A stretch of 64,000 nucleotides of DNA, taken from assembly GCA_965178125.1 (NCBI GenBank), contig OZ237743.1, positions 1,302,001 through 1,366,000 on the forward strand, read 5' to 3'. Shown in pieces: positions 3,713-61,047 of the stretch. The position numbers and the translations under genes are program-made. The notes under the pieces were generated by a model. That model was not told the origin of the DNA, ran no database searches, and saw only the letters and a program-made list of their open reading frames with translations. Within the stretch, counting starts at the first letter, position 1; each line of letters starts with the position of its first letter. The DNA is from Bilabrum cf. latius. Taxonomy: Eukaryota.

Positions 3713-5232
3713 TCACTTGCCGCCTGCACCTCCTGTTGCTGCTGCTCCTCCTCCTGCCGACGCTTTGCTGTCGGGATTGCTTGCAGCAACTGCCTCACCT
3801 GCCCCCCTAGCGTCCAGGTTGCACCCGCGCCACGCCACCGACACCCCGTCCCAACCGCACGAAGCCACCGTCCCGGCGGCCCCCGCGAGAGGGCTCCACG
3901 CCACCGACCTCACGAACTCCTTGTGGTGCTAAAGGCGACCCAGCAACTTCCAGCCGACCGAGGGCACGTCACCCGCCGTGGGAACCGGATTCATCGGGGC
4001 GACTGCCGCGGACCCCCAGGCCCCACCCGCCCCCTTGCCCCCGCCCGTGCTCCCCCCACCTTCGCCCGCTGCCCACACGCACACCGCTCTGTCGTACCCG
4101 CATGTGAGCAGCCGACCTGCCCCCACTGGGTCCCACCGAACCTTCAGCAGGGCCAGGGTGTGCCCCCCCGAGAGCCTGGCCGCAGGGGCCGCGGGCCACC
4201 GCACGTCCCACACTCTCACCGCCGCATCCACGCCCGCGGTGGCGAGCAGCCCCGGCCTGTCCTGCCTCCAGTCGCAGCTCGTCTGCTCCACGCGGGGGTG
4301 CGAGGGAGCGGATCCCCCCCCCGCCCCCGTCCCCCTGCCCCCCAGTTGCAACCCCCCCTTGAGCCCCTCCCTGGGGTCAAGCACCAGGATGTCCCCCGCT
4401 TCCGTCACCGCCCCAAGCTGGCCCCCGGGGCCCCACGCGATCTCCTGCACCCCCTTCTTGGCCGAGCCCCCGGCCCTGCCAGCGGGGGCAACCCCCGCCG
4501 TTGACCCCACTCCGGGGCCAGCTCCCCCCGAAGGCACACCCCCTCCCCCAGGGGCCCCCGTCAGCAGGGGGGCCCGCAGCGAGGTGACGTCCCACAGGGA
4601 CAGCCGGCCGTCGCCCCAGCCGGTGGCGATCTGCGTGCAGGGGGCCGAGTAGCCCGAGGGACCGGGCCTCTGCCACGCAATGGCAGACATGTCGGCTGAC
4701 GGCCCAGGTGCGTGAGCAGGCGAGGGCGCAGGGGCTGCTGCGGCAGTCTGCGAGCCTGCTGTGGCTGCCAGAGGCAAGGACGGCGGGGCCAATGCTCCGA
4801 ACACGGCGATGGGACGGACGAATCCGTCCGGGGAAGGGACTGCCCGTCTATCGTAAAGCCGGGCGCTACCATCCATGCAGCTCACGACAGCCTGGTGAGG
4901 GCTGCATCTGCTCCATGAGAGCTGCGACACGCCAGCAGGAGACGCGAAGGACACGTCGACCTTGCCGCGCTTCGTGACTGGGTCTGTGCGAACGAAATCT
5001 AGCCTACCCCTGCCTGAAAGTCCAAAGTTTTCGGCCTGAGCAACTGCTATAGTGTTGTCCAGGAATGGGCTGAACGCAACCTGTGCAGAAAGAGGGGATT
5101 TGGTACAGTTCGAACTGGCACGGCCGGCGTTCGCAGCTTGTAGCTGGAGGGTCGAAGCCGCCTTGGCGGGATCAGGTGCATACAATATCTTACATCATTA
5201 CACGGGAAGCTGTGCAGTGTCCAGGAAGCCAT
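3713..5232 (-). CDS. PEX7: Peroxin 7 (PTS2 receptor, WD40); exons 5232-5194 and 5080-3713; one in-frame TAG at 3929-3931
   Basis: The spliced N-terminus DVAFSPFLDNTIAVAQAENFGLSGRGRL matches the PEX7 start. The last WD repeat (HHKEFVRSVAWS...ASCGWD) lies after the TAG in the same frame. Ends TGA. Confidence 0.85.
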
Positions 5233-5481
5233 AGGTAGCGCTTATTTCGTGCGATCTATGGCAGCCAGAGCTTGCGACCGCTGTGTGCAATCCCCGAAGA
5301 TGAAGCAATTAATTTTGGTGCAGTGCAACCGCACCAAAATTTGGGCGACCATGTCGTCCAATCGAGTTGAAGCTCCTCAAATATTCGAAAGTGTAAGTCG
5401 ATCGTCGCAGATCTGCGAACTTTGGTCTGAATTCCCAGCGTTGGGCCTGCTGCCGGTTGGCCGCACCGCAGGCATCCGTTG

Positions 5482-8400
5482 ATGGAATTGTTGCAACCCA
5501 AAGCTCTACATCTACATTCCTTCGCGCAGCGCGAGGCTTTAGTTGGGAGGGATCTCACGGATTTAGATCTGTAGGCGCGCCGCTTGGTGGCTAGGCAGGC
5601 TGCTGAGCGCGAGCGGCGCCGGTGGCGAGAAGCCGGCGATCGCGCCGCGGCCGCGGGGCTCGGTCCACCGAAATTCAGGGACCAGCAGGCTCTGGAACGA
5701 GGGACAGCCGCTGTTCTGAGCGGGGGTGGTACGCTGCGGCTGGGTGAGTAGAGCGATGCCTCCGCCTCCGCCTGGTCGGGATGGACCGCCCAGGGACAGG
5801 GGGGCGCAGGCAGCTCCGGGGACGGCCCCCTCCTTGGGGACGGCACTGGGGGCACCAGGCAGCCGGGGGCGCGGTCCAAGGAGGCGCTCGAGACGGTGCG
5901 GGATGCTCGCCGGGCCCGCGCCATGGAGAGGGGGGAGCTGCCCGAGGACCCAGCGCACGACAAGGACGAGGGCGAACTGGACGGAGGCACTGGCAGGACC
6001 GCTGTCTCGGGTGCATCGCACGGCGGTGCTGGCGCAGCGGCAGGTGCAGGGGTGGTAGGAATGTCCACTTCCTTGTCCTCCAAGTCGGTGCACGAAGCCA
6101 GTCGGAGGCATGGGTCCTCCGGGAGGCAGGCAGGCGACGAGGAGGACGAAAGGGGGCTGGAAGCTGGAGCGGGACTTGACATGGTGGCGGGGAGCACGAG
6201 GGAGAGGGGGGGAGAGAGGGGCAAGGAGGACGAGAGTCGGGAGCGGGACCATCGCAGAACCGTGTCAGTCGATTCGACAGCCGCGGAGGAGTCGGCCGTG
6301 GCAGCCGCGGTGGCTGCTGCCGGAGGGGGAGTTGGTGTGGGGCGCAACTATGGCCAGGTGCACATTGGGCCCGACCCCCCAGCGGGTCTCACACCCGGGG
6401 TCTTGGCTGCGGAGGAGGAACTGCTGGCAGCGACCACGGCCCCCGGGGCGGGCGTTCTGTCTGGTGTGGGGGCCAGGCACAGTAGGCGGGGGCGGGCCGG
6501 TGGAAAGCACGCGCGCAAGACGTCGGGAATCCACAGCCCGAGGGCGCGGGGGGCCAGGGGCGCGGCTTCGACGAGACTCCCTCAGGCTGGCGGCGGGGGC
6601 CCGTCGGGGATCGGAGACACGCGTGCGGAGGACGCACTCGTCACGCCTGACATGCGGCTGGGAGAGCTGTCCTCCGATCTGCACGCGCGGCGGCACGTGC
6701 TGAGCCAGCTGGTGGCCAAGGGCCAGTGGTTCGGCCCCATGCCTTCAAGGAGGGTCTGGGGGGACGAGGCTCTGGAGAACAAGGCCGCAGAGAGGGGTGC
6801 CAGCGCGCTGACGAGTGTGGCTTCAAGAGTGCGGCGGAGGATGCGCCTGCAGGGGCTGCGGCAGGGTGCGGCCATGCGGCTGCGCACCAGGGAGCCGAGC
6901 GCGCTGCAGTCGGCGAGGCACGCCACGGCGTCATCTTCCACCTCCCCTTCTCGGCAGCGGGGGGGCGGCAAAGACGGTGTGAAGGGCGATCCCGGGCCTC
7001 TGGAGGGCGGGAGGGGCAGCCTGATGGACGCCCTACCCAGGGAACAACGGAGGAGGCTCTTCGCTGCGGCTGCCAAGGCCATGGGCGGGGGTTAGGAGGG
7101 AGTGCCCCAGGGTGGGGCGGGGGGCACATGGGGCCTGCGAGCCAGGGAACTGGAGGAGGCGCAGGAGGGGCAGGGCAAGGGCGCCGCGAGAGGGGCGGGG
7201 TTCGGGAGGGCAGCCCGGCCGACGGCGCAGGCGGCCGCTGCTGTGCTGGGGCCGCGGCGGGCGGAGGGTAAAGGTGCAGCGCATGGTGGTGCGGCGGTAC
7301 CTGGGCGCTTTCCGCAGGGCCGGGAGAATGCTCTGAGTCGGGCGGGGGGACGGGTGAGTCGGAGCGGCGTGCACACCCCCTTCCTTCGATAGGGGCCGTC
7401 GGTTGGAGGGCTGGACGAGGGCGAGGGTGAAGGCGGGGGGCCGGGAGAGGGGGGCCATGGGGGAGATGATGTGCACGTGCATGTGCACAGGGAGGGTGAG
7501 GCTGGAAGGGACAGCAGGGGGTCCATGGGGAACACCATGGGGAACACCACTGGCAGGGCGGGTGCGGGCAGCCGGTTGGCAATGATGTGGAGGAGCAGCA
7601 AGAGCAGGGTCGCAGTGGGCGTTGCTGGCGAGTCCAGTTCTAGCCGCAGTGGCTTGCAATCACGGCTAGGGGGCGGCGGGAGCGGCCCTTCCACTGCAGC
7701 GCACGACGATGACGCTGACCCGTCCGGTGTGTCTCGTCTGCTGGAGGGAGTGCTGGACAAGAGCGACCGCAATGCGCTTGCAGCTGCTCTTGACCGGGCC
7801 CTACACGCAGAGCTGGACAGGGGCGGCAACTACGTGCCTCCCGCTCTGCCAAAGGGGACCCAAGGCACCGACGGCCAGCGAGGTGGGCTGATAGGCAGCA
7901 CCAGCACCCCCTCACTGGGTGCCGCTTCTCTGGGGGCCTCCTCTTCGGCTGGCAGGCTGCCGGGGCAGCAGAGGGTCAGGGGGGGGCGGGGCGCGCACGG
8001 TGGTTTCGGGCTGGCGGCGGCAGAGGAGGCCCGCGAGCTGAAGGAGGCCGTTGATACGGTGCACAGGCTGACTGAGGGAGCGAGGACCGACGGGCTGCCT
8101 GCTTCGGGGAGGAGGAGCGCGCTGCTCTCGGGGCAGTCCTCGCTGGCACTCAGCGCGGTGGACATGCTGACCTCCAGGGCCAGCTCCAGAAGGAGGCGTG
8201 CATAGGGGCACGGGCGTGTCTCTGCGGCTGCGGGGGGCAGGGGCTCAAGAGCGACGGGTACCGCGCCTGAGACGGCGGATTCAGGGGCGGCTGTGGGCAG
8301 CGCAGGGGGGCGCGGGTCCACTGGGCGGACTAGTGGTGGTTTTGGCGGGCTGCTGGCGAGTCGGATGGGGGGGCAGGGGCGGCGGGGGCACGGCCGGCCC

Positions 8401-11400
8401 CCCATGGACAAGCGGTCGAGTCGTCGCTTCAAGACGGACATCGCCAGCATGATTGCGCTGGGACTTGTGCCACCACAGGACGCGGGGGATGGGCTGGTGG
8501 CGCTGCAAGGCCCCCGGCCGGGTGTGGTCGACTCGCTGCGTAAGGAACAGAAAGAGGCGGCGAGGGCGGTGCGGCTGCTCGGCGCCAGCACCTCCTTTGT
8601 GTCTCCGCTGGGCACGGTGGTCAACACGGCCCGGCGCGCGAGGCAGGCTCGGCTGCTGGAGCTGCTCTACTGGTTCGGTATCGCGGGGGATGGTCGGTTG
8701 TTGAGCAAGGAAGAGCTTCGAGAGAGGAGGCGCCTCATCCGACAGGGTCAGCTGGAGGAGCCCAGCATGCCCTACAGGAGGGCAGACACAATCTCTGTGG
8801 CGCCCCGGGTTTTCGCCCCCAGCGGTGGCGCGGGCGTTGGGAAGGGGCCAGCTAACGGGGCGCGCAACGGACTGTCGCAGTCCACGAGCAAACGGGCGAG
8901 CGGGAGCAAACGCGGCAGCAGCGCGGCGGCCGGGGATGAGGGGCCTGGGAGCGGCTCGAGCGGCGGCACCCGCGTGCCCGGCCTGGATCTGGCTGCCCTG
9001 GGCGCCACTGGGTTTGCGAGCACCGCGGCGTCCCCGCCGGAGCAGCAGATCGGCAGTCAGACGGCTCGGCTCGGGCAGCGATCCAGTCTGCTGGGCGCAT
9101 CCACGCCAGGCAGCATCGCTGGGGATGCCAGCATGAGCAGGCGCAAGGCCAGGAGGAGGAAGACGAGGGTGTCTCCGGGCCGGGCGGCGCGGCGGGCCGT
9201 CGCGGCGCTGGCCACAGGCAGGGGCGCGGCCATCCACAGCGCGGCCGCTGCCCTGTCTCAGGAACTGTCCCTGTCCCCGCGGGCGGCGGAATACTCCGCG
9301 GTGCTGCCGTCTGCACGCTCAGGCGCGGCTCATCGGCGAGGTGGGGGGCAGCGATCCGCGGCCTCTCCGGGGATGAGCGGGTCCTTGAGCATGTCGCGGA
9401 GCAGGGTGGGGGCGGCTGCCAGCCCTGGCACCGTGGGGTCTCCGGGCACTGTCTCGGGTAGGCTCGGAGGGGCGAGCGGTCTGCTGTCAGCCCGCAGCGT
9501 GAGCGGTTCCTCTTCGATGGGTGGGGGGCCTCGGGCGCCTCGGAGGCGGCTGCGCGGGGGCAAGGGCGCCAGTGCGCTGTCTTTGGCCATCCAAGAGTCG
9601 GAGAGCCGACGCCTGCGCATGAAAACTGGGTCTGTGGGGGCAGCCGAGGCTATGCGGGTGCAGGCTGCCACGAGCATGGCGGCGGCTTCGGTGCTGGAGG
9701 AGGAGGGGGAGGGGGACGGGGGCATCGATGATGGCCGTGGGAGTGGGAGTGGCAGAGGGAGCGAAGAGGGGGGCACAGAACAGACCCACATGGACGAGGA
9801 GGAGGAGCTTCTGCTGATAGGGGCGGGGGAGGGGGCTGGAGACCAGCTGGATGCTACTGTCGTGCCACTGTCACTCATGGCGGAGGAGCGTGCTGCTGCT
9901 GGTGGTAGTGCCAGCGGGGCGCAAGACGCTGGGGCCACGCTGAGCTAGCTTGCGAGAGGAGAGGGACAGCCAGGGAGCAAGGGGAACCAGCTGCCCGGGT
10001 ACCTGGCCAAAGCCGCTTGCCTGGGCTTTCTGCGGGGAGACGAGGCGGAGGCGTGCGCGGGCCCCGCAAGCTCGGGGGCCTCCTGGGTGCTCGGGCAGGC
10101 GGACGCGGACGCCGCCGCGCAGGCGGAAGCATCCGAAGGCGGGCGAGAGGTGCATGCCATCGCCAGCCGGGATGGCGACCAGGACACGGAAGGGCACACC
10201 CCAGACTCTCGGAATGAGCGCAAGCACCTGGCTCGCATGGAGCTCGAGCGGATGCTGCTGGCCGGTAGGGCGGCACTGGCGCAGGCCACGGCCCGCTCCA
10301 GCCACGCGGCAGCCTCGCTGGGGCCCCCCGGCCGGATCAGCCTCGCGCTGTGGCTGGATGGGTCGGGGGGGCAGGGGGCGTTGGAGGGCGGGAATGTGTC
10401 CGTTGGGTTCGCGGCGGTGGCCAGCGATGAGCCAGAGAGTCCACGGGTGGCCTGGGAGGGTGCGTCTGCGCTGCTTGCGGCGGCGCTGGGGCGTGCGGCT
10501 GACTCGGCGGGACAGGTGCTCTTTGGGGGCATTGTCGGGTTGGTGCGCGGGCTCGGTGCCCTGCAGCCACAAGCGTAGGGGCAGGGACAGGGGCAGGAAC
10601 AGGAACATGGACAGCACGGTGCGTCTGCCCGTGGTCTCGGCTCTAGGGGCGTTGGAGCTGCCCAAGGTGCGGGCCCCCTGCAACAGGGTAGTGCAATGCA
10701 CCGAGCTGCGATGGAAGAGGGGCTGGTGCTGGGCGAGGGGGAGGGGCAGCGCGTGCTGCGACCCACTGAGGATTCGGGAAGGGATGCGGCGGGGCAGGAG
10801 CTGGCACTTGGAAGCTCCGTGGGCCCCAGCGGCGAGGTGGGCCTGATGCAGCCCTCTTTGGCCACCTTGGACTCGCAAGAGTTGCAAGGGGGCGATCCCG
10901 TGGGCTTCCACGACGAGGCAATCGCATTCGCCTCGCAGCCCAGACTGCTCATGAGCCCGCCCCCCGTGCGGCCGGACCAGGACGCCTCCACAGGTGGACG
11001 AGTCGGTGCTGACGCCACCCCGCACAGGACCGGAAGAGGGTCTGTCGGGTTCGGTCCCGCGCCTACCCCCCGCAGCTCGTAGGCAGCAGCAGCGGTGGCT
11101 GGGCTGGTGGCTACGCCTCGTTAGCTGCTGGCTCTGCTAGTTGTGTGTGACCTTGCGATCGACAGGCGGGGCCTCGCGCAGCTGAGCCCCCGGAATGTGT
11201 ACGGGCCAGTGGCTCTGTCGAGTGTGGCGCAGGCCGCTCTGCAGCAGCTTGCAATCGAGGCGAGAGGGGCCAGCAGGGCTGAGAGTGGCACAGCGGGCGA
11301 GGGCGAGGGGGAGGGCGAGGGCAAGGGCAAGGGAGACGGCGAGGAGGAGGGGGAGAGGAGGGGGCAGCTCGTGTCCAGAGGGGGTGGGTCCAGAGGGGCG

Positions 11401-14400
11401 GAGTCGTCTCCACAGGGGACTCCTGGCCTGCTGCCCCCCCTGGTGGACCTGGAGGCCCTGGAGCAGGAGGCGCTCGGAGGGTCTCCGCGCGGGACCCGTG
11501 GCCTCGACGGAGAGGGGGAGGGGGAGAGGGAAGACCCCCTCCTGGCCTTTGCATTCCAGGCCCTGTCCGGAGACATCGCGGAGGGAGGGCTGGGACTCAA
11601 GGCCGGGGATGCGGCGCTGACGGACGCAGACGAAGCATCCGATGCTGCAGCTGCCATGGAGCGGGCCTTCCGTGCCGCGATCCAGCGGAAGCCAGATGTG
11701 GGCGAGGTCGGCCCTGACAGTGACAGCGACGGCGGGGAGGAGGGAGGCGGGCAGCTTGGAGGAGCGGGTGCAGGGAATGGTGGGGAACACTTCAGGCCCC
11801 CAGCCGCAGCAGCCGCCGAGGTGCGTGCCAAGACGGCCCGCAGCGTGGCCACGACTGCGCTTCACGCAGCGACAGCCGGCATCGGAGCCGCTGAGGCTGA
11901 GGCCGCTCGCCGAGAGGTGCGACTGTACCGCATGCTGGGGATCGTGCCCCGGCGGCAGTCAGTGCTGGTCATAGGGGAGGCCCCCTCGGCGCTGCAGCAG
12001 CTCTCCGGGGCGCTGACACCCGCCAACATCGCGGCGGCCAAGCACAGCAGCAGAGGGGCTGCCGAGGCCGGGGCTCGGCGGACAGCTGTCGCGGGTGCAG
12101 GGGGCGCGGCCGGTGCCAGTGGCCGGCGGGTGTCTCAGGTCTCGCAGCTGTCCGGGCTCATGCCTGGACGGGCCTCCCAGGGCGGCGTGGCGGCGGCGCT
12201 GTTGGGGCTGCCGGGCGGGGGCCGGGGCCTGGCTGGGCTGCTGGGGCAGAGGGGCAGGTCGGGGTCAGGGGCAGGCCCGGGGGAGAGGGCGGACCGAGGG
12301 GCCATCGACCACGCGCAGCTGCCGGGCATGTACGCGGTGCTAAACCGGAACAGGGCCAAGCACGGGGGCGGTAGCAGCGGGCAGGGCACGGGCAAGGGCA
12401 CGGGCGCCTTTGCCCTGCTGAACAAGGAGGGGATCGAGGCGGCGAGGGCGCCTGGGAGCGCCGTCCAGCAGAGCCACACGGTGACGGCTCTGACAGAGAG
12501 AGGCAGCCGGGCAGCCAGGGCGCAGAAGCGTCGCACCGTGAATGCGCATGGGGCGACGGGCAAGGGGAAGAAGGGCAGGAGGGGGTCAGTGCTGGGCGGG
12601 GCACAGCCGGGTCAGCGCGAGGACGCGGATGCAGCGGCAATCGAGGCCTCAGGTGGCAATGCGAGCGTTGCGCTCGGCCGGCTCGTCGCTGCGGGCGGGG
12701 CCCTGGAGGAGCGCGCGGTGCAGCGGCGCATCGATGAGCGAGGCCTGCCCCGTCGCACGCCCTCGCCCGAGCCGCTGCTCCCATACACGACGCGGAAGCC
12801 TGCCCCGGAGCCTAACCCTCTGCCCACGATGGAGGAGGTGCGGCAGGAGCTGGACCAGCAGGGGTCGGCCGCCGTGGGCAAGATGCTCCGGCAGCACCGC
12901 AGCGAAGTGGCGCGGGCGAACCACGCGATCGAGAAGAGTAGGAGGCGGATCACGGGCGCGGGTGCAGATGGTGAGGTGCTGGAGGGGCTGTACGACGAGG
13001 AACACGAGGATGGCCAAGGGCTGGAACAGGGCTCTTCCATCTTCGGGTTTGGAGAGGAGGAGGAAGAGGGCGAGGGGGGTGGGCCTCATGGCCTCGGAGA
13101 GGTAGACGGTGGAGAGGGGGGTGCGAGCGGGAGGCACGCGGCGGTGCGGCTGCCGAGCGGCCGTCTGGTCAGCGGGGATGGCACCTTGCCTCCGGGGCAG
13201 AGCCTGCGAGAGCTCTCGGTGCTGGACCAGCAGGCGGTGCGTGCCCTGCGGGACCGAGTGGCTGACGAGCAGTTCCTCGCATGGATGCAGCTGAGTGGGC
13301 TGGCGGGGGACGAGGGTGAGGCTAGGCGGATGGCCGGCCTCGAGACGGGCCCTCGGCGCTCGCACGGGCAGAGGGGGCTGCTCTCACACCCGTCCGAGCG
13401 AGATGTCGGGCGGGCGCTCGTGCCGATGGGGCGGGAGAGCAGATTGACGCAGGGAACAACGGGCTCCATGGGGACGGCAGGGACCGATGGAACTGCTGGT
13501 GGAGGAACGAGAGCTGCTGCTAGGCATGGAGTGGACGGCAGGGGGTCGGCAGGGAGCCTGCCCTCGCGCGGGGGTGGCGGTGTGGGCGATGGCGGGGAGT
13601 CGGTCGGGGGTGGGAGGAGGGGTGGGGGCCTCGCAGGCGGGCGCATTTCTAGGGGACGAATGCTTCGCGTGGCATCGGCGCGCACCAAGAAGGATGGCGC
13701 AATCGGAGAGGCAGAGGCAGGTGTTGGGCAGGAGATAGCCAACCGCCCGCGGCCTCCCGCCAGCAAGCCCGCCTGGAACCGAGCAGCAGGTGGCGGCAGG
13801 TCCCGTGCGCCCACCGGGACGGTTCCCATGGGGCAGCCACCGCCCTCGGGTCAAGGTGCTGGAGGCCCGCCCTCTGTCACAGCTGCCACTGAGGACATGA
13901 TCAGGCGCGCGCTGTGGGAGCGGGCGGGGGAGGGGGCATCGGATGGGCACGACGGGCATGACCATGGCGAGGGTGAACAGGGAGGGCAAGGAGAAGCGGG
14001 GGCTGCTGCGGCACGCAAAAAGAAGGGCAAGCGAATGGGTAGGGGCAGGGGCAAGGGACGATTCATCGCAAAGACTGCGTCAGAGGGGCTGGAGCGGTTG
14101 CATCCTGGGCTGGAGGGCGTGAACGAGCGCGATCTAGGGGCCGGGGATCGGTTCGAGCTGGCTCGGGTGAGGGCAGACCAGCGGCTCGGCAAGACCCTGG
14201 ATGCCCTAGCGAAGGGCAGGGCTGACGCGCTGTGGCATCGCATGGGCGCGCTGAGCACCGTGCTGGGAGACGGGTCCTCCAGGGAACAAGGGTCCGGTCT
14301 AGTGGCACTGGACCTGGCGCAGGAGAGCCTGGTGATGATGCGGGTACAGGCAGAGGTTGGCCGGCTGGCCGATGCAGAGGCAAAGAGGGCGGGACTCGGG

Positions 14401-15660
14401 TGGTTTAGACACCTCCTTCGCGTGCTAGTCTCGCAGCAGGCGCCGGGTGACGTGTCCCCCGCCCAGCGCTTGATCGTGCACCGGCTGGCACAGGCCCTCC
14501 GCATCAGCTCCACGCACGGCTCCAAGGCTCGCATCGCAGCCTCGGCGCACCCGCGGAAGCTCCCTCTGACCCTGCTGGGCGGACTGCTGGATGCCTTGGA
14601 GCCGCAGGAACTGGTTCTCCCCGGCGTGCAGCTGACCCTGGCGTTCCTGCGGCGCGCCATGGCTGTGCCCTTGCGCGTGTGGACCGCCATGCACGCAGCG
14701 AGAGGACAGCCCCCACCGTGTGAGGCAGTGCTGCAGCGGCTGTACCTGGAAAAGGAGAGAATCGCTGCGGAGGCGGCGCGAGGTGCATCTGCCGGAGCCA
14801 TGGGGAAGTCCAGTGCAGGTGTTGCAGCCGTGAAGGACGCAGCCCCTGTGGCAGGGGCATTGCCTTCAGCCCGGGGCCAGTGGGGGGCACAGGAGGACGG
14901 CTGGGCGGCGAGGGAGACAGGGCGGAGGCTCCTGTCGCTGCTTGGGGAACAGGGGCCGGCCATCGACCTGTCGCCGGGCAAGCAGGGCAAGAGGGGCAGT
15001 GATGGGAGGGAAGGCAAAATCGCGGCAGGGTTCGGGTTCACCGGCAGCAGCGGTCGCGGGGCCATTGCTGGACATTCGCTGCAGGCCTCCACCTCCCCTA
15101 TCGGCGGTGCAGCGAGCACGAAACAACCGGCAGAGGACCTGCTGCATCGCACTGGGAGTGCCGCTCCTCGAGACATCCACAGCGAGCTGCGCGCGCGGCA
15201 GGCCATCCTGCAGGGTGCCGCCAGTGGTGAAGCCCGCGCCATGGCCGCCAAGCCGCCCTCTCCCGCCCTCCTGCTGCAGCGCGAGTTTGACGCCTTCTAC
15301 GACGCCCTGCCCAAGGTGCCCAAGATACTAGCTTCACCGCTCAAGCAGAGGCAAGCGGGTGCAGGCAACGGCGGTGCAGACGACGCACGGCCCGGCCCGC
15401 CGCCCCGACCAGGGATAAATGCAGTGCATGCAGGTGCAGGTACAGGTACAGGTGGCTCGAGCCGGGACTCGCCCCCCGTGCCGGCCCGGCGGCAGGGGAT
15501 CCTGGACAAGCTGGGGCCCGAGGACCGGGCGCTGCTCCCCAGGGCACTACGGGAGGAGCTGGACGGGACTGTACTGCGGCGGGTGAAAGAAGAGATCGGG
15601 CTAGGGGGGCACTTGCTCGGGGAAGAGGTACAGGACCGTGAGGGTGCGGGGGCCTCGTGA
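5482..15660 (+). CDS. Giant (~3,390 aa) low-complexity Gly/Ala/Arg/Ser-rich hypothetical protein; 9 in-frame TAG; true start uncertain (a short upstream exon from ATG 5351 is possible)
   Basis: Supplied ORFs 5896, 7102, 7471, 8293, 10087, 10696 and 11143 are all in frame +1. They are separated only by TAG (5572, 5749, 7093, 7390, 8203, 9946, 10576, 11080, 11122). The first TAA/TGA is the TGA at 15658. Confidence 0.75.
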
Positions 15661-22987: not shown

Positions 22988-25900
22988 TCAGTACTCGATC
23001 CCGAATACTGTGGACTTGCGGTCCGTCGTAAACGCTCCAATCTGTATTTTACCAGCCTGCGATCGCCGCCCTGTCGGTACAAAGTCGGCAAACGCTCCTG
23101 GGGCTCCATCAGGCAGCTGGTAGCCATGCGCGCCTCCTCCTCCATCATCGTGCTGCGGCGCCGCCTGCGTCCAGAGCGTTGCCGTGGGGCACCAGGACAC
23201 CCTCTCGGCCCACGCGTCCCACTCGGGCGTGCCCCTCACGGCCAGCCCAGGGGGCACTGCCTCCCTGAGACCCCCCACCAGGGGGTGCGAGGGCCTCCTC
23301 ACGTCCCACACGAAGGCGCACGGGTCCGTGGAACCGCAGGTCACCAGCAAACCACCCGAGCTCCAGTGACCCGCGGAGGCCTGCACCAAGCTGCGGTGTA
23401 TTCGGCTCCGGGTCCAGTGCAGGTGCAGCACCGCCCCCGATGACGTGCGAGAGCCCCCCCCCACCCTGGTGTCCAGCACGCTCAGCCGCTGGGTCCACCG
23501 GGGAGTCACCGTGGCCAGAAGGAGGTCCGGATCCGTGGGATGCGCCTCGATGCACGACACCCGTGGCTGGCTCTCGGGGACCATGCCGCTGCTGCCACTG
23601 CTGCTGCCAGCACTGGAGCTGGAGGCGGCCCCTGCCCTTGTTCCCTGTGCTTGTGCCCCGCTGATACCCACTGCAAACTTGTTGAGCTGTCCCGGGTGGA
23701 TGCCGAACACGTAGGGCTGAGGGTTCTGCCCTTGTCTGTGAGATGCGGCCGGGGCGAGTGCAGAAGAGACGGGACCACTGGGGGCACGGTGCATGCGGGC
23801 AGTCCCCTTGTTCCCTGGCCTTTGCTCATCCGCGCCTTCCATCAGCAGAGCAGGTACCACGGCCAGACCAGACGTGTCGCTGCCTAGGATTGGGCCACGC
23901 CGGGCCTAATGCACGGCGCTGTGACGTGCGCCCTTGCTGCCTGCACCTGCATGCAGTGCACGTGCACCCGCACCTGCACTGCCTGCTAGTGACCCAGGCG
24001 GCGCCCCCGCCCACTCGTCCAGCCCCGGCCTAGACCTCCAAGAGGGCCAGGCCAGCGGCAGCATAAAGGTGGTCCGGTCCCGCTCCACGTCGTGCCCGCA
24101 CACCGTGCCGTCATCGGAGCACGACAGCACGATGCGCCCCCCTGCGTGCCCGCATAGGGCCCTGATCTCCGCCGAGTGTCCGCTCCTGAGGCTGTGCACG
24201 GCCACTGTCCCCGTGAGCGAGTCGGCTCCCTGCACGCAAAGGATGGGCTTGCCGCCGTGTGCTCGACCGGAGGAGGAGGAGGAGGAGGAGGAGGAGGACG
24301 AGGACGAGGGTCCACTCACTAGCAGCATGGGTCCGGAGGGCGGCTTCGATGATGACGAGTGAGATGCTGCATGGGATGCACCGCTCGTCCTCGCTCGCTT
24401 GGGGGAACGTCGTCTCGACCCACTGCCCCTGCTCCTTCTCCTGCCCCTGTCCCGCCCCGCCTTCTGACCCGCTGCACCTGCAGGGCCCCCGCCCTCACTG
24501 TCAGATCCGGAATCAGAAGTGTCCGAATCGGATCCATTAGCGCGGTGACCACCGGTTGCCGTCCCTCCCGCACCGCCCCCGGGTAGCAGCCACCCGGTCG
24601 CAGACACTCCCTGCAGCTGCGGGAAGCTGAACCCGCGGGAGCTGACCCGCTGGGATGCCACCGCCCCGGACCCGAGCAGAGCCATCGTGCTACCCGCAGA
24701 CCCATCAAAGACAGTACACCTGGCCCCGTCCGGCCCGCAGCTCACCTCTCTCTCCCTGAACGCGCCAGGCGGCGCCCCTGCCCGGCTGCCGTCCCCCACC
24801 GCTTTGGAGGGGGCGGGGCCAGCACCCGACAGGGAGTCAGCCGGCAGCAGCGCAACGAGCACCTGCGGCACGCGCACCACCCGCCTCGACGGGGAGGCAG
24901 ATCCGGACACGGCGTCGCTCGAGGTCCCCGCCTGCCGCCTGCCAGCACCTGCAGCCGAGCTCCCGCTCCGCCTGCGAGAGCCCGGCTGCAGCCCCATGGC
25001 GACTGCGATGCGCCTCCTCCATCTCTCGGGCGCCGCCCTGGCCCTGCCCCTCGTCTGCGGCAGCGGCTCGAAGCAGGTCAGCACGCAGGGTGGGGTGTCT
25101 TGCGGGAGGTGCGCCCGGGTGTGCAGCCGAGTCACGGCCCCGTGTTCCCTGGAGCCCTGCACTAGGGCCAGTGCTCCATCCCTGCAGGCCAGCAGCAGCC
25201 CCGAGGAGCCAAGCCTGGAGGTCCCCTTGACTGCCCTGTCCAGCACAGGCCTGCTCATGGAGCCAGCCACTCTGACGGAGCCGCACGAGCGGCTGCTGCC
25301 ACCTGCACTTCCACTTCCACCTGCACTACTGCTGCTGCTGCTGCTGCTGCTGCCTCGCTTGCTGCTGGAGGCGGTGCTGGGACCCGTGCCAGGATGAGCC
25401 GCGGTACCACTGCCAGCCGCGTGGGGTGATTGCGTGCTGTTGCTAGCTGATCTGTGGCCAGGAGGCGCCAAACTCGGTGCTGAAGAGCTGCTGGGCACTC
25501 CCATTGCCGCCGAGGGTCCGGATCCAGATCGGCTCAAGGGTCTGCTGCTACCGCTGCCAGTCACGGCGTCCGCTCGGGGCAACTGAGGAGGAACCGACGG
25601 ACAGGTGGTCGTGTCGGCCTGCTCATATTCGTTCACTTGTGAACCACTGGCATGGTGCACGGGCATGGACACGATACTAGACGACCCGGCCTGAGCTGGG
25701 GCTATGGCGGGTTGCTACTGTTCCTACCGATAACTACTGTGGCTAGATGCCCGGGCGGCTTCTGCGGTATCGCTTCTATGGGACACCTGGGCTGCAGCTT
25801 GTTCGCCTTGGCTGCTTGCGCTCTGTACCTGCACGGCAGCTGCAAACGCCAGCGAATTTGAAGCGCTGCGCAAGGCTGGCGGTGGCGTTGGCTTGAAGTG

Positions 25901-26110
25901 GATCTCTTGCTTGACCGGAACTTCCAGAGTTTCAAACTGCTCAGCGCTAGCACCTTCAGCCAGCGCTGTTTCCCTGAGCATTTCCTGCCTTAATTTTATC
26001 TCTTGCATTTGGAGATACTTCATCCTAGCCTGTCTGGCGCTCGCCCAGGCCTACCTAATGCTGGCTTCGTACTCAGCTAGCGCGGCATCAAACTAATGCT
26101 TTAGGCTCAT
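22988..26110 (-). CDS. WD40-repeat protein with long low-complexity insertions, ~1,040 aa; 5 in-frame TAG
   Basis: WD-like motifs GHSAEIRAL...SCSDDGTV and TCGSTDPCAFVWDVR. ORFs 26023, 25672 and 23860 are in one frame from ATG 26110 (TAG 26093, 26051, 25724, 25715, 23906). Ends TGA. Confidence 0.68.
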
Positions 26111-26235
26111 CCGGGATATATTTGAAAGGAAGTGGCTTGATTGAAATTTGAAATTTTGTGCTCTTCGGGTGCGATCCGGAGCCGCCAGCGTTCGCGGTGC
26201 GGTCCGTTTGGACAGCAGACGCGTGCAATCCAATC

Positions 26236-29124
26236 ATGGACTGTCTCGTGAGCGTAGAAAGATAGCGATGCACTGAGCCGCGAAAGTAGTAGGGATCTCC
26301 CATACTGAAGCGATACGGCAGGGCCCTGGTGTCATGCTTGCCAACTGACAAGGCAATTCGGATCGAGTGTGACTCTGGCAAAAAGCTTGCCATGCCGCTT
26401 GACGGAGGTGTTAGGATCCATCACATTGAGGATGAAGGAAAGCTCACAGTTGTCAACAAAGTGTTTGGTTTGCGCTTGTTTCTCTCGGGAATGGACCCCG
26501 AGGACGTCGTTAGACTGCGATCCACGCTCACGGCAAATCGACGCCGTCGCAAGACAAGCCGAAAAGATCCTGCGAGGGAGCACTGTGCAGCTAGACCAGT
26601 GTCAACAGGAGATACCCTCTACTCGAGTTCGTCAGCTCCTCCCGTTTCGAGCCGCTCCAGCGGCGCAGGACTATTCCAGGTATCCGCCAGCAACGCTACC
26701 TCATCCTCAATCACCTCGACTGCCACTGGCAACTCGCGGCAGAGGGGAGCTCGAGACACCCTGGCGCTCGGCCCATCCCCCGATTCTCTCGCCAGGCGAG
26801 CAGTACCCCGGGACTCGGCACGGGGCACCGTGGTGCGGCGGGCGAGGGGCAGCGGGCGAAGCTCTACCGCTGCCGGTGGTGGTGCCAGGCGGGCCAGGGC
26901 TGGGGCAAGCACTGCAGCGGCCGTGAACAGTATCGATGCAGGGGCCGTAGATTTTGGATTCAAGGTTCGGAGCGGGGCAGTGCGGGTGATTCGCGAGACC
27001 GGTGCAGCAGGGCACCAGTCGTCCAGGGCTGCTGGCGCTGTGGCACAGCCATCGGCCGGGACTGGGGCTGCGGCTGGCATTGTGGACGGCAGGGGCACGA
27101 AATGCGACGGTTGGGTTGAAACGGAGGAGCAGGCTCGTGTGACGAGCGCGGTGAAGAATGGTCGGTCGGTGCTCTTCACCGGCGCGGCTGGCTGCGGCAA
27201 GAGTGCTCTGCTGCGGCGGGTGGTTGGCATGCTGCCGAGGGGTGGCACGGCCGTGACTGCTTCCACAGGGGTAGCTGCTTGCAATGTCGGTGGATAGACG
27301 CTGTATGCGTTCATGTCGGTGGGGGCGGGGGCTGTGGAGGAGGGGGCGGAGGCGGCGGCAGCACTGGTGATGAGGAAGCGGGAAGCGGTGGAGCGGTGGA
27401 GGCGCACCAAGACCTTGGTGGTGGACGAGGTCAGCATGGTGGATGGCAGGCTCTTCGACTTTGCAGAGGAACTGGCCAGGAGGGTGAGGGGCATCGACAG
27501 GCCCTTCGGAGGGATGCAGCTGGTGCTGTGCGGGGATTTCTTCCAGCTGCCTCCTGTGGCGAAGCGCGGGCAATCGCGTGGGTTCGCCTTCGAGGCCAAG
27601 AGCTGGGCCCGGTGCATCCAGGATGTGGTGGAGCTGACTAAGGTGTTTCGGCAGAGCGACGGGGAGTTCATCCGGGCCCTGCATGAGATCCGGTGGGGTA
27701 GGGTGCCTCCGCAGGTGCAGGGCATGCTAGCGGCCAGACAGGGCGCGCCCATCGTGGCAGCCCCAGGTGTCAGGCCGATCCGGTTGTTCACGCACAGAGC
27801 TGACGTAGACGGCGTGAATGCGGATCAGCTCGCGAAGTTGCCGGGGCGCGCCATCGAGTTCCGTGCCGTGGACATGGTGGCACGTAAAGGGGCCGCGCAG
27901 CTGCTGGACAAGGCCTGTCCCGCCCCCCGCTCTCTGCACCTCAAGCCCGGGGCCCAGGTGATCCTAAGGAGAAACCTGGACCAGGAAGAGGGACTCGTCA
28001 ACGGGGCGCAGGGAGTAGTGGTGCGATTCACAGGGGCAGCCAAGCTGCCCGTCGTGCGCTTCTCCGTCCCGAAAGGAGCCAAAGAGGTGACGGTGCACCG
28101 GCAGACGTTTGACGTGGCCATGGACGGTAGACTGGCCGCGTCCAGGAAGCAGCTGCCTCTGGCCCTTGCCTTCGCCCTATCCGTGCACAGGTCACAGGGC
28201 ATGACACTGCACGCAGTGAGCATGAGCCTGTCTAGCAGCTTCGAGTACGGCCAGGTCTACGTCGCTTTGAGCCGCGCCTCGTCTCTGACGGCGCTCTCGC
28301 TGGAGGACAGCTTCAACCCGAGCGCGGTGAGGGCGCACCCCACCGTCGTGAGGTTCTATCAGGACATGGCGAGGAAAACGCAAGGGACGAAGACGGAGCA
28401 GGCCTCTGGTAACAGTATTGGGGCCAGCAAGAAGTGCGACCCATTGGGTTCGAGTGGAAGCATTTCAGTTCCTGCTGCGGTCAAGGAGGTATCGCGAGGG
28501 TCTGCCCTAGCTGTGTCATTGTCGGCATCCAGCGCAGCAGGCGATTCGGAGGCAAGTGGTGCGAGCAAGCACAGACCAAAACAAGTCCAGCAACCAGCCG
28601 GTCGAAAGCAAGCGCCGTAGTCAAGAGCAATCGGCGGCAAGGCGAAGCGAAGGGTCGCCCTGGGCTCGCCCTCCAAGCCAGGGGCAGCAGGAGCCTTGCC
28701 GTCCACAGGGGCAGCCCCAGCCTCTGGGGCCGGTGCGGCACAGAGCCCGCCCCCCTCTGCCCTCCGAGCGCGGAAGCAGCTGCGGCCTGCTGGGACTACG
28801 CCTGACGGTTGCAAGGGGCCTGCAATCAGGCAGAGCACACCGCGCAGGAGGCTGTGCTTCGTCGAGGAAGACGAAAGAAAACAGCATGATGGGGGGTCGC
28901 ACGGGACAGAGGGTCTGTGTGCGGCCTCCACCATCCAGCAGCAGCAACCGGGGCCCCACCCGGCTGCAGCTGCATCTGGCTCGGGGGAGCGAGCCACGAC
29001 TCGCGTGTCGCTGGGCGGTTCAGGCAAGGGTGGGGGGCCTGGAGAGAGCAATGCACAGGCAGCAGTCGCAGTCCCCGCCGAGGGTAGTGGCCAGGTCAGG
29101 CGTGTGCTCACCTTTGGCGTGTAA
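26236..29124 (+). CDS. PIF1: PIF1-family 5'-3' DNA helicase, ~960 aa; 5 in-frame TAG (26263, 26287, 26290, 27295, 28618)
   Basis: Walker A FTGAAGCGKS, motif Ia TASTGVAACNVGG[TAG]TLYAF, DEVSM, GDFFQLPPV, SVHRSQGMTL and YVALSRA. The N-terminal segment resembles the PIF1 N-terminal domain. Ends TAA. Confidence 0.92.
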
Positions 29125-29194: not shown

Positions 29195-32100
29195 TTATTT
29201 CCCCTTCTTGCTCCCCTTGGCAGCCCCTCCCTTCCCCTTGCCCTTGCTAGAGTCCACCTCCGGTACCTGTTCCCCCGCATGCTTGTGCAGACTCAAATCC
29301 ACGGTCTGTGCAGCATCGATGATTGCACGGGCCACCTCTGCCATGGCATCCCAGTCGAACATGGTCGGGCTCTCGCCCAGGTACTCGACCAAAGACCCAA
29401 TTGACTCGGTCAGCTCCTTGTACTGCGTCTAGATTGCATCCAGCGTGTCCTGCGCGTCCTCCACCACCTCCCCTAGCACGTCAGCCAGCTCGTCCTTGGC
29501 ATCCGTCAGGAAGTGCTGCACCGGCTGCTCCCGGGCCGCGTCCAGCTCCGTGTCTAGGAACCCCCTGGCCTTGTCAAGACCCTGCACCATCTCGCGCAGC
29601 TGAGGCAGCGCCACGGGCTGCTCGGTGAAGCCCTCCATCACGTCCTGCAGCCGCTCCAGCATGCGCTTCGGAGATCTCTCCTCAACATCTGGAGCCGTGC
29701 GGGCGTACTCGACTGCTGCCTCTCCGATGACCACCTGCAACAGCGTCTGCGAGCCCGTGGTGGCCTTGGTGCCGTACATCTTGGCGAGGCTGCTGTACTT
29801 GAACCCCCACGCACCGCCCTTACTCGAGCCCCCGTTCATGAAATTACCGATTCCAAGAGCCGTCCGCAGGAGCACTTTGACCGGCAGTGACTCCTTCATG
29901 TCCCGCACCGCCTTCCGGATGGATGCGATGGACTCGCCCACCGTGTCCACGTCCTGCTCCAGCCGATCCATGATACGGACACACTGAAGCCGCTCACCCA
30001 GCCTAGGAAAGCACCCGAGGCAGTAGATGAACCAGTCCGCAGGAGGAAGCCGCTTGGCCGGGTCCCCGCCACCTTTCTCCACCGACGTCACGTTGTTTTG
30101 CAGCTTGGGCATCTCTTCCTCGTCCGCTTGCGGCAGCATGATCGAAAGCGCCTTGCACATGTCCTCGTCCAGCAGATCCTCGTCCACCTGCAGGGCAGCT
30201 TCCACAGCGGTCTTGGGCTTCATCTTCAGCTTGGCCAGCAGGATACCAGTGTTCTGGTTGCGCTTGAACGACAGGATAGAGGGCAGCGGCTTTCCCGAGT
30301 CCGCCTTCCCCTTGCCCTTGCCGCCTTTGGCTCCTGGGTCCGCTTGCACCGCTTTCTTAACCTTGGCTTTGCTCTTCTTCTGCGCAAAGAGCCGCATCAT
30401 CAGCTGCGAATTCACCTCGTATCCCTAGTCTGACACGCCCTGCCACACGCAATCACGCCCGTCCGCGTTGATGTACCGATGCGCCAGCTTGTCCCAAAAC
30501 AGGCTGCGCATGGGCACCGGGGGCTTAGGGTTGGGCTTTTGCGGCTCCTTGGAAACGGCACCCCCGGGCCCCCCACGAGCGGGCCGCCCACCACCGCGGG
30601 CAGGTCGGCCTCGTGCTGGCCTGCCACCAGCGGCACGAGGTCCGGCGCGAGGCCCCGCCCGAGCTCCCCCGGGCCCTGGGCGCGCGCCCCCGGGTCCTGG
30701 TCTGCCTGGGCCTGCCCTAGCTGTACCGGGGCGACCCGGACCTGGCCTACCTGGCCCCGGCCTGCCTGGCCCCGGCCGGCCTGGGCCGGGTCGGGATGCA
30801 CCAGGCCCAGGCCGAGATGCACCAGGCCCAGGCCGAGTTGCACCAGGCCCAGGCCGAGATGCACCAGGCCCTGGCCGAGATGCACCAGGCCCCGGTCGAG
30901 ATGCACCAGGCCCCGGCCGAGATGCACCAGGCCTACCTGGCCTACCTGGCCTACCTGGCCTACCTGGTCTGCCTGGTCTGCCTGGCCGTCCCGGTGCACC
31001 GGTTGCTGGAGCGGGAGCTGGAGCAGGTGCTGGGGCGGGCGCTGGAACGGGTGCGGGAGCGGGTGCAGGTGCAGGTGCAGGTGTAGGCACAGGCGCAGGG
31101 GCTGGCTCTGCGGCCGGTGAAGATGCTGATTTTGCCGCATCACCACTTGCTTGTACCGGCTCAGCCGGCGTCGGAGTAGGTGCCGCAATCGGTGCAGGTG
31201 CTGCAGCAGAGTCGCCTGCACCTGTCGCCGGTGTGCCATCTGCCGACGCCGTCGACTGCGAAGGGGGCCTCGGTTTGACGCCTGGCCTGGCCGACCTGCC
31301 TCCATTCTCAAGGGCCAGCACCTCCTTCAATTGTTCCTTCGCCTTCTCCGCGTCTTCACCGCCCTCCGCAATCCTCTCCTCCAGCGCGGTCCTAAGCTTC
31401 TGCCTCCCCGTTCTGAGCTTGCGCTGCAGCCGCTTCACCTCCCGCATGAGCCTGTCCACCGATGGCGTATTGCCCTCTGCACCCTCTTTCTGCGCCTCTT
31501 GGCTGACCCCGTCCAGAGCCTCGATGCTGGCGCCCTGTGCGAAGGAGCTGAGGCTGCTGGTGTGCTGGGCGGCGCGCCCCTCCCCCCTGTGCACAGACCG
31601 CTGAAACGCGTGCAGGAAGGAGCCGCGGCGGGCGTGCCTGGAGTGTCGCCGCGTGGGAGGCCCATCGTCGTCTCCTCCTCTCGCTTCTGCTCCCGCCGCC
31701 CCCTCCCCTTTCTCCCTGGACCTCCAGTCCTCCCCCGTCTCCCGGACCCTCTCCCTGTCCTCCTTGGAGAGACCGTCCAGCATGCGGGCGGGATTCGACA
31801 TGCCCTGCACGCCCATGCCGCCCATGGAACCCCCGTGTGCTTCTCCACGAGCTCGTTTGACGGCCTGTTTGATGGTGCGCACCCACTCGCGGCACCTGGC
31901 CTCGTCCTGGAACCGGTCGTCCGAGGGTGCCGTCGAGAAGTAGTACTGCCGGCCGTACGCGTGCTGCGGACATCGAGAACAAGCAGGTTCGGGAAGTTGC
32001 ATCGGAAATTAACATGATATTAAAATGTATTCGGTGCGGGCGCCATGTCGGATTCTACATCCCTCACCACCACGAAAGAAACACCGGGCTGGTCCTCAAC

Positions 32101-35700: not shown

Positions 35701-37665
35701 AGACAATCCCCGGTCTGGTTGTGCATAGGCTCTCTGTAAGTCAGATATCAGCCTCCTCATCTGCGACGCACCGCGAGCGCTGCTTGCGAATGGTGAAGTG
35801 TCCAGGGAAGCTGCTGCTGCCTCGAGTGCGCGAATGGCATCGGACGATTCCTAGACTTGACTCTAGCGGGTATATCGCGACTATTGTTGTGCTACTGCTG
35901 CCAGCAGCTGCTCCGAGCCCCATCCTCCAGTGGGAGAGAACATCCTGCGACCCAAGCTCACGAATCGAGACCGGAGGGCCGCACTCGCTCGCCAGGCCCC
36001 GCTGTACGCAGTCGAGTAGCCCCCTGCCCCCGCCCCCGACAGCCACTCCGCCATCCAGTGCCCAGCGAGCCCCTTCACAATCGAGGGGGCGTGGTGCCGG
36101 TCCACCAGTAGCCAGTCCATCCCGCCCCCGCTGGCTCGCAGCCATGCCTACCTCACGCACTCGCCAGCATTGCATGCTCTGCCTCGCTCAGCACGCAGGT
36201 GGGAACCCACGTGAGGCGCCTGCATGCTGTCTTCGATCTGCGCCCACCACTGCTGGGAGTCTTGCCACGCCGACTCAAGCATAGACAGCCGAGCACCGGC
36301 GCGGGCCCGGGCCTGCATCTCGCCACCGTGCTATGCCTCGAGCTACTCCTGCTCATCCCCTGCCCCCCCGCCCATCTGCAACAGAGGGGTGTCAGCGAAC
36401 ACCCCTTGGCCAAGCAGCACCAGAACGCTCGCAGGCGGGGGCACTGCCTCTTGATGGGCTGCGGCCAGGCTCTCAAGCTGCCGCTTCGCAAGCGAACCAA
36501 CTCTCCCCACCGCCCCCGATGGAGCCACATGCCCGGGTCCCTGGGTGCGAGGAACAGCGCCACCACCTCGCACCCAGGCCCCCGCCGACCGAAGGACGTC
36601 AGCCCTCCACTTGGCAGGAGTCCTCCGCTCTGCAACCCATGCGAACCTGGCCAGCTCCAGAGCCGCCTGCCGCGGCTGCATGCCCGCCCTTAAACCCCGT
36701 GCAGTGAGGCCGCCCACCTGAAGGTCGGGAGGGGCCCGCAGGAGCACCCGCTGCTGCCTCTGCAGCTGCTCGAGCACGAAGGCGCCCATTGAGAAACCCC
36801 GCTAATTATTCTTAGCCTGCTCGCTGCCAGCCCTGCCTCTGGTTCCCACTGGCGGTTCGGGCAAACTTGAAGACGCGTCCATCGTGTCGATGTCCTCCAG
36901 CTGAGCCGAGCCGCCCATTTCGCGCAGCCCCTGCAGCACCAGGCCGGGCTAGCCCTGTTGCATCCAAGCCTCTGCGCGCTGCAGACGCAGAGATCGCAGC
37001 TACTGGCGCAACTGCAGCACGCTGAACCGTCCATGAAGCTCTCGCCCAGCTCTCTACATGCGCTGCTCCGCCAGTGCCTGCGAGATGCTCGGCGAAGTGA
37101 GCACATCTGTGGAGTTCTCTACCGCTTTGCTGCTAGCAGAACGCGGTACGTACTCCAAGGCAGCAAGTACCAATTCCTCGGCCCGACCAAGTGCCGCTTC
37201 GCTCTCTCGAAGTCGGCTTGCGCTCTGCAGCGCCCCAGCCAGGTTGCTCCAAACGGTGGGCAGCAAACTAGTGTCGGGTGCGACAGTGGCAGCCTACAAC
37301 CAGCGGATTGCAGTAGCACTATTACCTCTTGTGTGGGCCAGCAATCCGAGACAATGCCAAGCCTGCCCGCAAGGACAAGCGGATGCAGCAGGCACTTGCT
37401 CGCTATTCAAGCTATCGCTCGTACCCGGCGTGCTCCCGATACGTGCGACTTGTCGAATCGTCCCGCTCTCATCTTCTAATCTCTGCCTACATGCTGTCCC
37501 ATTATGTATTCGCCATGCGTGCGAGACTGTGCTGGTTCCGTCAGCAGCGGCTACGCTCTCCATGCACTTGTTCGAATGAAAGGGATCGCATGATACTGCC
37601 TGCGCGCAAGCAACCGCGGCAAATTGAGCGATCAGTTGAACTGCTCTGGTATAAAAATGTGGCAT
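32749..37665 (-). CDS. GT41/SPINDLY-like (O-GlcNAc transferase family) glycosyltransferase, ~1,640 aa, with a signal-peptide-like N-terminus; 16 in-frame TAG
   Basis: Motifs DAVLFPELGMHP..ALALGRWAPLQ..HGH, KLRPSFDGVL and DAFLDSWPFGS..GALESVLAGTPLV..GR. Nine supplied ORFs lie in one frame separated only by TAG. Ends TAA 32749-32751. Confidence 0.75.
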
Positions 37666-60904: not shown

Positions 60905-61047
60905 TGTTATATGAATCGTAATACCGTTTGTTGTTATAACTAATGTAGAGCGCGATAGCTGCGTTCCATTCCGATTCCGCAGCATTCGCGAGAGCAAACC
61001 AAACTACACTCCATCCCTGGTCTATTAGCATTTTAGCCTCTGAAGTG

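Follow-up and report, generated by a model that had tools for sequence, protein, structure and literature searches.

UAG is probably read as glutamine, with UAA and UGA kept as stops, in a stramenopile related to Cafeteria

The genetic code was analysed in a stretch of 64,000 nucleotides from Bilabrum cf. latius (NCBI GenBank assembly GCA_965178125.1, contig OZ237743.1, positions 1,302,001 to 1,366,000 of the forward strand). The whole stretch is called the window below, and all coordinates are positions in it. We conclude that the codon UAG, TAG in the DNA, quite probably encodes glutamine (Gln) in this organism, a meaning which an original prediction had proposed from the amino acids surrounding some of the TAG codons. 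The TAG sites look like Gln sites, and two independent calibrated tests, one using neighbour contexts and the other alignment columns, leave Gln as the sole residue that is not rejected. The window belongs to the nuclear genome of a stramenopile that has few introns and is rich in guanine plus cytosine (GC), the GC content of the window being 0.55-0.71 in bins of 4 kb. In the three families compared the nearest named relative is the bicosoecid Cafeteria roenbergensis, at 46% identity for a voltage-gated cation channel, 55% for PIF1 and 48-49% for ZMAT2.

TAG is, beyond reasonable doubt, a sense codon, and TAA and TGA are stops. Read with the standard stops the window shows broken frames only; when TAG is read through, open reading frames (ORFs) of 3393, 2849, 1638, 1081, 988 and 935 codons appear. 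Measured as open frames, the longest ones grow from 1511 to 3409, 2851 and 1649 codons by readthrough of TAG, and readthrough of TAA lengthens no long frame. The 17 credible ORFs contain 83 in-frame TAG codons and no TAA or TGA, and in the two other frames of the same ORFs TAG occurs 127 and 116 times, TGA 288 and 244 times, and TAA 36 and 40 times. All 18 ORFs first listed end at TGA (12) or TAA (6). Eukaryotic proteins recognised among the ORFs are the voltage-gated cation channel, PIF1, a formin, a PEX7-like protein, ZMAT2/SNU23 and an adaptor-complex mu subunit; a Cu/Zn-SOD with a TSP1 domain is also encoded. A C-terminal ZMAT2 motif, which judged by eye and unaligned is seemingly common to the Cafeteria proteins, lies downstream of the TAG at 61885. 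Local recoding of the pyrrolysine or selenocysteine type was set aside, TAG being present at about 5 per 1000 codons in nearly every gene and not at a few special sites.

A comparison with public runs, which covered the 20 kb at 44001-64000 with 60425-60561 skipped as a repeat, gives information on the frame. Run X6 has the identical sequence in all 8 pieces listed, and runs X9, X11 and X12, from three studies, contain relatives whose DNA departs from the window by about 6-8%, one X9 piece, for instance, having 258 differences in 3874 letters. In these relatives A>G and T>C changes are commoner than the reverse, so they are somewhat more GC-rich. Among the 1430 differences 41 were listed, and the state in the relatives could be read at one of the 27 TAG codons of this stretch, the TAG at 47207. 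Of the listed differences 31 fall in 46963-47698, within the gene at 46871-48682, and 28 of these are at third codon positions. The 30 changed codons, 26 synonymous and 4 with a replacement, lie on either side of the TAG at 47207, and the frame therefore passes through this TAG under purifying selection.

Relatives were also found in protein collections. Two Logan-derived ZMAT2 fragments, P0241 and P0391, which are predicted from relatives, are 97% identical to the window and begin exactly at a GTG that is the window's first start codon after the TAG at 61081; judging from this start, the organisms they come from may carry a stop-like TAG there too. In public collections the proteins of relatives stand as fragments, each beginning at the first start codon that follows a TAG. 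Searches for homologues as long as the whole proteins found no complete copy of the channel or PIF1 of the window, and none of 10 ATG-started fragments taken from its genes had an exact match in a protein collection. A metagenome scan with the channel protein gave 591 pattern matches, none of which was confirmed. The same kind of scan with P0391 gave 27 loci and no close relative; the best long match (100 residues) was 48% identical, and the identity rose to 54-68% only in short segments, about 25-45 residues long.

The seven TAG contexts quoted in the original prediction are all present where it had placed them (Table 1). At the first of them, 10576, the AG of the TAG starts an array of period 6, and the T occupies the place held by the C of CAG in the later units. 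CAG is indeed the main Gln codon of the window, used 556 times vs 164 for CAA. Taken over all TAG codons, Gln is enriched 1.61-fold within 5 residues of TAG, with 57 seen vs about 35 expected from the background frequency. Lysine (Lys) is at its background level near TAG (1.0-fold) and is 2.05-fold enriched near Lys itself, and the codon AAA is depleted near TAG (1 seen vs 5.3 expected). Adjacent TAG-TAG pairs number 3 vs 0.43 expected. The share of TAG among the Gln-type codons of the 17 ORFs correlates with the share of CAA (rho 0.80), with the GC content at third codon positions, GC3 (rho -0.79), and with TTG/(TTG+CTG) (rho 0.62); the TAG share thus tracks the local AT shift between genes, which fits Gln without discriminating it from other residues.

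The contexts were evaluated with a neighbour-composition model built from the window's own residues, in which Gln was compared pairwise with each rival residue and the result for the 86 TAG sites was calibrated on held-out data. The log-likelihood of the TAG sites lies inside the range of true Gln sites in all 9 comparisons. For Gln against Lys the TAG score is 13.0, where sets of true Gln sites give 11.0 +/- 5.2 and sets of true Lys sites -11.4 +/- 7.2. Sets of true Lys, serine (Ser), tyrosine (Tyr), threonine (Thr), arginine, valine (Val) and alanine (Ala) sites attained the TAG score in 0 of 300 draws each, true glutamate (Glu) sets in 1.7% and true leucine (Leu) sets in 2%. A position-specific naive-Bayes ranking also placed Gln first, by 7.3 ln units, but is poorly calibrated, with true Gln sets called Gln in only 11% of trials; the pairwise comparison takes its place.

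Hydropathy gives a similar picture. The original prediction had argued from the channel that TAG avoids membrane helices, and this holds: 1 of the 18 channel TAG codons touches a hydrophobic segment, at its edge, where 4.1 would be expected. The corresponding fractions are 11/111 for Gln, 6/87 for Lys, 105/271 for Leu and 17/41 for Tyr. The channel TAG codons thus resemble Gln in hydropathy and differ from Leu, Val and Tyr.

For the alignment columns, homologue sets were obtained from three families only, the channel, PIF1 (120 homologues) and ZMAT2 (151). The channel search returned 120 proteins, of which 15 were aligned and 12 protist-like rows kept after 3 vertebrate T-type rows had been dropped. 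Eight TAG columns have the required occupancy of at least 60%, and five of these rest on 12 sequences. The average frequency of each amino acid over the 8 TAG columns was compared with family-matched draws of the sites where the window truly has that amino acid. Gln is not rejected (0.085 vs 0.214 +/- 0.106 at true Gln sites, p 0.12), the test having low power; Gln passes because conservation is lower at Gln sites than at those of any other residue, the median own-frequency being 0.08. Lys is marginal (p 0.039), and lower values are found for Ala (0.004), Glu (0.003), Thr (0.002) and Ser (0.001). The remaining residues have p at most 0.0006, and for Leu, Tyr, Val and tryptophan (Trp) so low a value came up in 0 of 5000 draws. 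The view in the original prediction that Leu is unlikely is therefore borne out by contexts, columns and hydrophobic segments alike. Its caution that Glu, Lys and Tyr were not fully excluded is still justified for Lys, as far as the window alone can tell, and both tests disfavour Tyr and Glu.

Several observations weigh against Gln. One is residue 147 of ZMAT2 (TAG at 61381), the best-conserved of the columns, which is Lys in 102 of 151 homologues and Gln in 8; the original prediction had named a Lys at this position, and the alignment is real. The two 97%-identical relatives P0241 and P0391 have Lys there as well, and their state is readable only because they are without TAG at this codon. 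If TAG is Gln, one would expect CAG or CAA, not AAG, at this position in a relative lacking the TAG. Gln would require an AAG-to-TAG replacement in the lineage of the window, at a place where Gln is tolerated (8 of 151). Residue 147 is real evidence for Lys, by a rough estimate of the order of tens to one. In the Cafeteria-like relatives the residue is Thr or Ser. At residue 380 of PIF1, 99 of 120 homologues carry Thr, Val or isoleucine (Ile), the four nearest all having Thr, and 3 carry Gln. The TAG at 47207, the one read in the public runs, is TCA (Ser) in the relatives, two steps from TAG; it sits in a linker, with a methionine/Lys replacement 9 codons further on.

Gln has the plurality in only one of the 8 columns. 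When log frequencies are simply added up over the columns, uncalibrated, no residue is singled out, since Val, Ser, Lys, Ala, Gln and Thr come within 5 ln units of one another. The original prediction had named columns dominated by Leu, Tyr, Glu or Lys as what would count against it, and here its success is partial. The reading from local contexts is upheld by the calibrated context test, and the calibrated column test leaves Gln unrejected; by the columns themselves it is not cleanly borne out, one having a Gln plurality, one being dominated by Lys, one by Glu and one by Thr, Val and Ile, with the others variable. Single PDB alignments, too few to weigh, give Thr (human) or Ile (yeast) at PIF1 380, aspartate at formin 526, Thr at PEX7 419 and phenylalanine at ZMAT2 47. 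Finally, contexts resembling those of Gln could also arise from former CAG codons at unconstrained sites, whatever TAG encodes. Under a meaning other than Gln, silent changes from the codons of that residue should then feed TAG and dilute the signal, and no such dilution is seen.

In the weighing of these points, Lys is rejected outright in the context test, known codes give Gln the higher prior, and one well-conserved column favours Lys. That UAG is not a clean Gln codon, being either Lys or ambiguously read by near-cognate transfer RNAs (tRNAs) after the release factor eRF1 lost its recognition of UAG, is unlikely; what keeps it viable is the Lys that both 97%-identical relatives have at ZMAT2 147, together with unusually weak conservation throughout the TAG columns.

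The first of these two readings, in which a tRNA-Lys with the anticodon CUA would read UAG in a nuclear code so far undescribed, we consider improbable. Besides ZMAT2 147 it draws on ZMAT2 residue 47, where 3 of the 5 nearest relatives have Lys, on channel residue 2359 (Lys in 4 of 12) and on the place of Lys as second-best residue in the column test. Set against this are the context score, which no set of true Lys sites matches, the lack of Lys enrichment and the depletion of AAA near TAG, and the columns of channel residue 2005, from which Lys is missing, and PIF1 380, where it is found once in 120. We know of no precedent for UAG as Lys in a nuclear code.

The second, which comes next in order and is likewise improbable, gives TAG no single meaning: near-cognate tRNAs (for Gln, Lys and Tyr) or several suppressors would read it, and it would be tolerated where the residue matters little. 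Natural readthrough of UAG inserts Gln, Tyr and Lys. The 8 TAG columns are less conserved than ordinary sites, even when compared with Gln sites, and the two comparisons with close relatives differ, giving Lys at ZMAT2 147 and Ser at 47207; these observations keep the reading viable. TAG is also missing from the 421 mu-subunit codons examined, whose GC3 is the highest, and from the coiled-coil ORF at 39506-41344. However, 83 TAG codons in 17 ORFs, with up to 18 in the channel, would make the proteins very heterogeneous or poorly made, and the contexts are uniformly Gln-like. The in-frame density of TAG is about two thirds of the off-frame density, so there is no strong avoidance, and studied lineages with reassigned stop codons are known to carry dedicated suppressor tRNAs. 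If decoding were ambiguous, a code change would have been caught before a dedicated tRNA had fixed its meaning.

That TAG encodes some other residue, be it Leu (the case of the rhizarian exLh), Tyr (that of Mesodinium), Ser, Thr or Trp, or that it is edited from U to C in the RNA to give CAG, is very improbable. The TCA of the relatives at 47207 comes within one step of TAG through TCG, Thr and Ser are frequent in the columns of PIF1 380 and ZMAT2 147, and SerRS and LeuRS do not read the anticodon. These residues nevertheless fail in both tests, and the avoidance of hydrophobic segments is unlike Leu, Val and Tyr; for editing at 83 or more nuclear sites we know of no precedent. Least credible of all is Glu, as in peritrich ciliates and Blastocrithidia, which is suggested by channel residue 987 (8 of 11 have Glu, but the surrounding run is acidic and loosely aligned), ZMAT2 47 (24 of 135 occupied rows) and channel 2004 (2 of 12), but is disfavoured by both tests, is missing from the columns of ZMAT2 147, PIF1 380 and channel 2005, and in those organisms goes with a reassignment of TAA, which is a stop here.

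The reading of UAG as Gln may be formulated as follows. UAG has ceased to end translation and is decoded as an amino acid, with UAA and UGA kept as stops. A tRNA-Gln whose anticodon had changed from CUG to CUA would read UAG, and eRF1, recognising this codon less well, would stop competing for it. CAG-to-TAG transitions would then turn silent, and TAG would build up as an AT-shifted synonym of CAG. The tRNA and eRF1 steps are taken by analogy from other lineages, as described in the available text of PMC5304391. A tRNA scan found no tRNA genes in the 64-kb window, and the eRF1 gene is absent from it.

Gln is the commonest meaning of a reassigned UAG. In code 6, which is found in many ciliates, hexamitid diplomonads, some ulvophyte green algae and oxymonads, both TAA and TAG are Gln. 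The window is like code 6 in that TAG is probably Gln and accumulates as an AT-shifted synonym of CAG, and unlike it in that TAA is unreassigned, there being no in-frame TAA in the 17 ORFs and 6 of 18 ORFs ending in TAA. The layout seen in the window is that of NCBI table 15. A closer parallel is the fornicate Iotanema spirale, for which the available text reports a reassignment of UAG only, to Gln (Panek et al. 2017, PMC5304391). In both, TAG has become a sense codon with TAA and TGA still terminating, and its meaning is probably Gln; the route proposed there, through a tRNA with a CUA anticodon and an altered eRF1, would be the same. The window comes from an unrelated supergroup, a stramenopile near Cafeteria, and the origin of its code is therefore probably independent of Iotanema; the meaning here rests on 86 codons of one 64-kb window, unlike the hundreds of alignments in Iotanema. 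In the rhizarian exLh, according to the same text, only UAG is reassigned, to Leu (PMC5304391). The window shares with exLh the change of UAG alone and differs from it in the meaning, Leu being rejected.

Cafeteria roenbergensis is GC-rich and intron-poor like the window. Unlike those of the window, its channel, PIF1 and ZMAT2 orthologues are predicted full-length under the standard code (3106, 683 and 452 residues) and are therefore without in-frame TAG. The code change would, by this comparison of sequences, have arisen after the split from the C. roenbergensis lineage. For stramenopiles, bicosoecids included, searches of the full-text literature, which reach neither subscription journals nor very recent work, turned up no variant of the nuclear code; the available portion of the P10K paper takes up such variation for ciliates alone.

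Table 1. Coordinates of genes and TAG codons in the window, and residues of homologues (one-letter code) at the 8 TAG columns used
Feature	Position	Strand	Observation or basis
PEX7-like WD40 gene, 1 TAG (3931-3929)	3713..5185	-	Pfam
Giant low-complexity ORF, 3393 codons, 9 in-frame TAG, TGA end	5479..15660	+	No Pfam family
TAG of the original prediction, giant-ORF residue 1700, in Gln slot of L-Q-P-Q-A-[TAG]-G-Q-G-Q-G-Q-E-Q-E	10576..10578	+	Reading frame
Period-6 (CAG GGN)-like microsatellite, 6.3 copies, 78% matches	10577..10614	+	Tandem Repeats Finder
WD40-repeat ORF, 5 TAG	22988..26233	-	Pfam
SYR[TAG]EQ[TAG]QP, in the WD40-repeat ORF	25726-25724 and 25717-25715	-	Reading frame
PIF1 helicase gene, 5 TAG	26158..29124	+	Pfam, homologues
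PIF1 residue 380, TAG flanked by invariant GG and T	27295	+	T51 V25 I23 S7 Q3 M3 C3 A2 K1 G1 R1
Formin (FH2) gene, 2 TAG, TAA end	29195..32002	-	Pfam
ORF of 1638 codons, 16 TAG	32749..37665	-	ORF reading
AVAQQ[TAG], in the 1638-codon ORF	35883-35881	-	Reading frame
Gene without known family, TAG at 47207 and 48167	46871..48682	+	Substitution pattern vs relatives
AAQAAA[TAG]AGQVQAQAQ	48167	+	Reading frame
Four-domain voltage-gated cation channel, 18 in-frame TAG, TAA end	52355..60904	+	Ion_trans, expect value (E) 5e-239, 4 stretches
NFSQ[TAG]EEE	55313	+	Reading frame
Channel residue 222			Column variable
Channel residue 987			E 8/11, in acidic run where alignment is loose
Channel residues 2004 and 2005, adjacent TAG codons	58364..58369	+	Column 2004 variable, E 2/12
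Channel residue 2005			Q6 A3 V1 T1 L1 (12 relatives; Gln plurality)
Channel residue 2359			K4 R3 A3 L1 I1
ZMAT2/SNU23 gene, TAG at 60946, 61081, 61381 and 61885	60943..62016	+	Homologue alignment
ZMAT2 residue 47			G24 E24 Q14 K14 F13 and others; 135 occupied rows
ZMAT2 residue 147	61381	+	K102 T16 S15 Q8 R7 and others; 151 homologues
Candidate ORF of 134 codons holding the TAG 62119-62117 (RAEQQ[TAG])	62069-62473	-	Open frame alone

Some further features of the window may be mentioned. The true start of ZMAT2 is likely the ATG at 61048. For the ORF of 1638 codons no homologue at E 0.001 or better and no Pfam family were found; its last TAG (32755-32757, minus strand) stands two codons ahead of the terminal TAA (...FG[TAG]P-TAA). 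The gene for the adaptor-complex mu subunit (50589-52151, minus strand) seems to have a short first exon of 13 codons (MLQSLFVLSSSNG), a stop-containing intron-like stretch and a main exon of 421 codons; introns are thus present but few. The 421 codons examined are without TAG, and their GC3 of 0.84 is the highest among the ORFs tabulated. A coiled-coil gene seems to be divided over two frames, an N-terminal part at 39099-39455 (plus strand) with 3 TAG and then an ORF of 612 codons at 39506-41344 (plus strand) without TAG; around 39460-39510 there may be a frameshift or a small intron.

Two neighbouring ORFs of no known family, 19008-20606 and 21090-22520 (both minus strand), are paralogues with the N-terminal motif LPLEMPEYEG-LGH, 44% identity over 64 residues and C-terminal ends which are alike. 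Only the N-terminal block of 64 residues could be aligned, and this block is without TAG. The first 31 residues (MSQVFNQSRRKKDYSFDNIFGWV...) of a lipocalin-like ORF at 1533-2066 (plus strand) reappear about 1.4 kb downstream at 2927-3373 (plus strand), which points to a probable local duplication. An ORF of no known family at 45594-46487 (minus strand) carries a stretch of about 55 residues (SDARTVISARDFSPCGENGFFEAL...CTVGATY) twice, as a direct repeat within the ORF; the word depth of this region in run X6 is 64.8 vs about 2 around it, which may mark it as a repeated element. Long (Ala-Pro)n and (Pro-Gly-Arg)n (proline, glycine, arginine) runs occur in the formin (30900-31300, minus strand) and at the C-terminal end of the channel (60430-60560, plus strand).

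Changes of the nuclear genetic code are rare outside ciliates. Changes of UAG only, with UAA kept as a stop, are rarer still, the available text naming Iotanema (Gln) and exLh (Leu) (PMC5304391). The window probably represents an independent reassignment of UAG to Gln in a Cafeteria-like stramenopile. A practical consequence is that annotation with the standard code cuts every long gene of the window into fragments. The public relatives, about 7% different in DNA and present in three studies, could give the meaning of TAG through counts of codon exchanges. If the reassignment to Gln is true, it adds a free-living relative of Cafeteria as a new lineage in which changes of eRF1 and tRNA can be compared.

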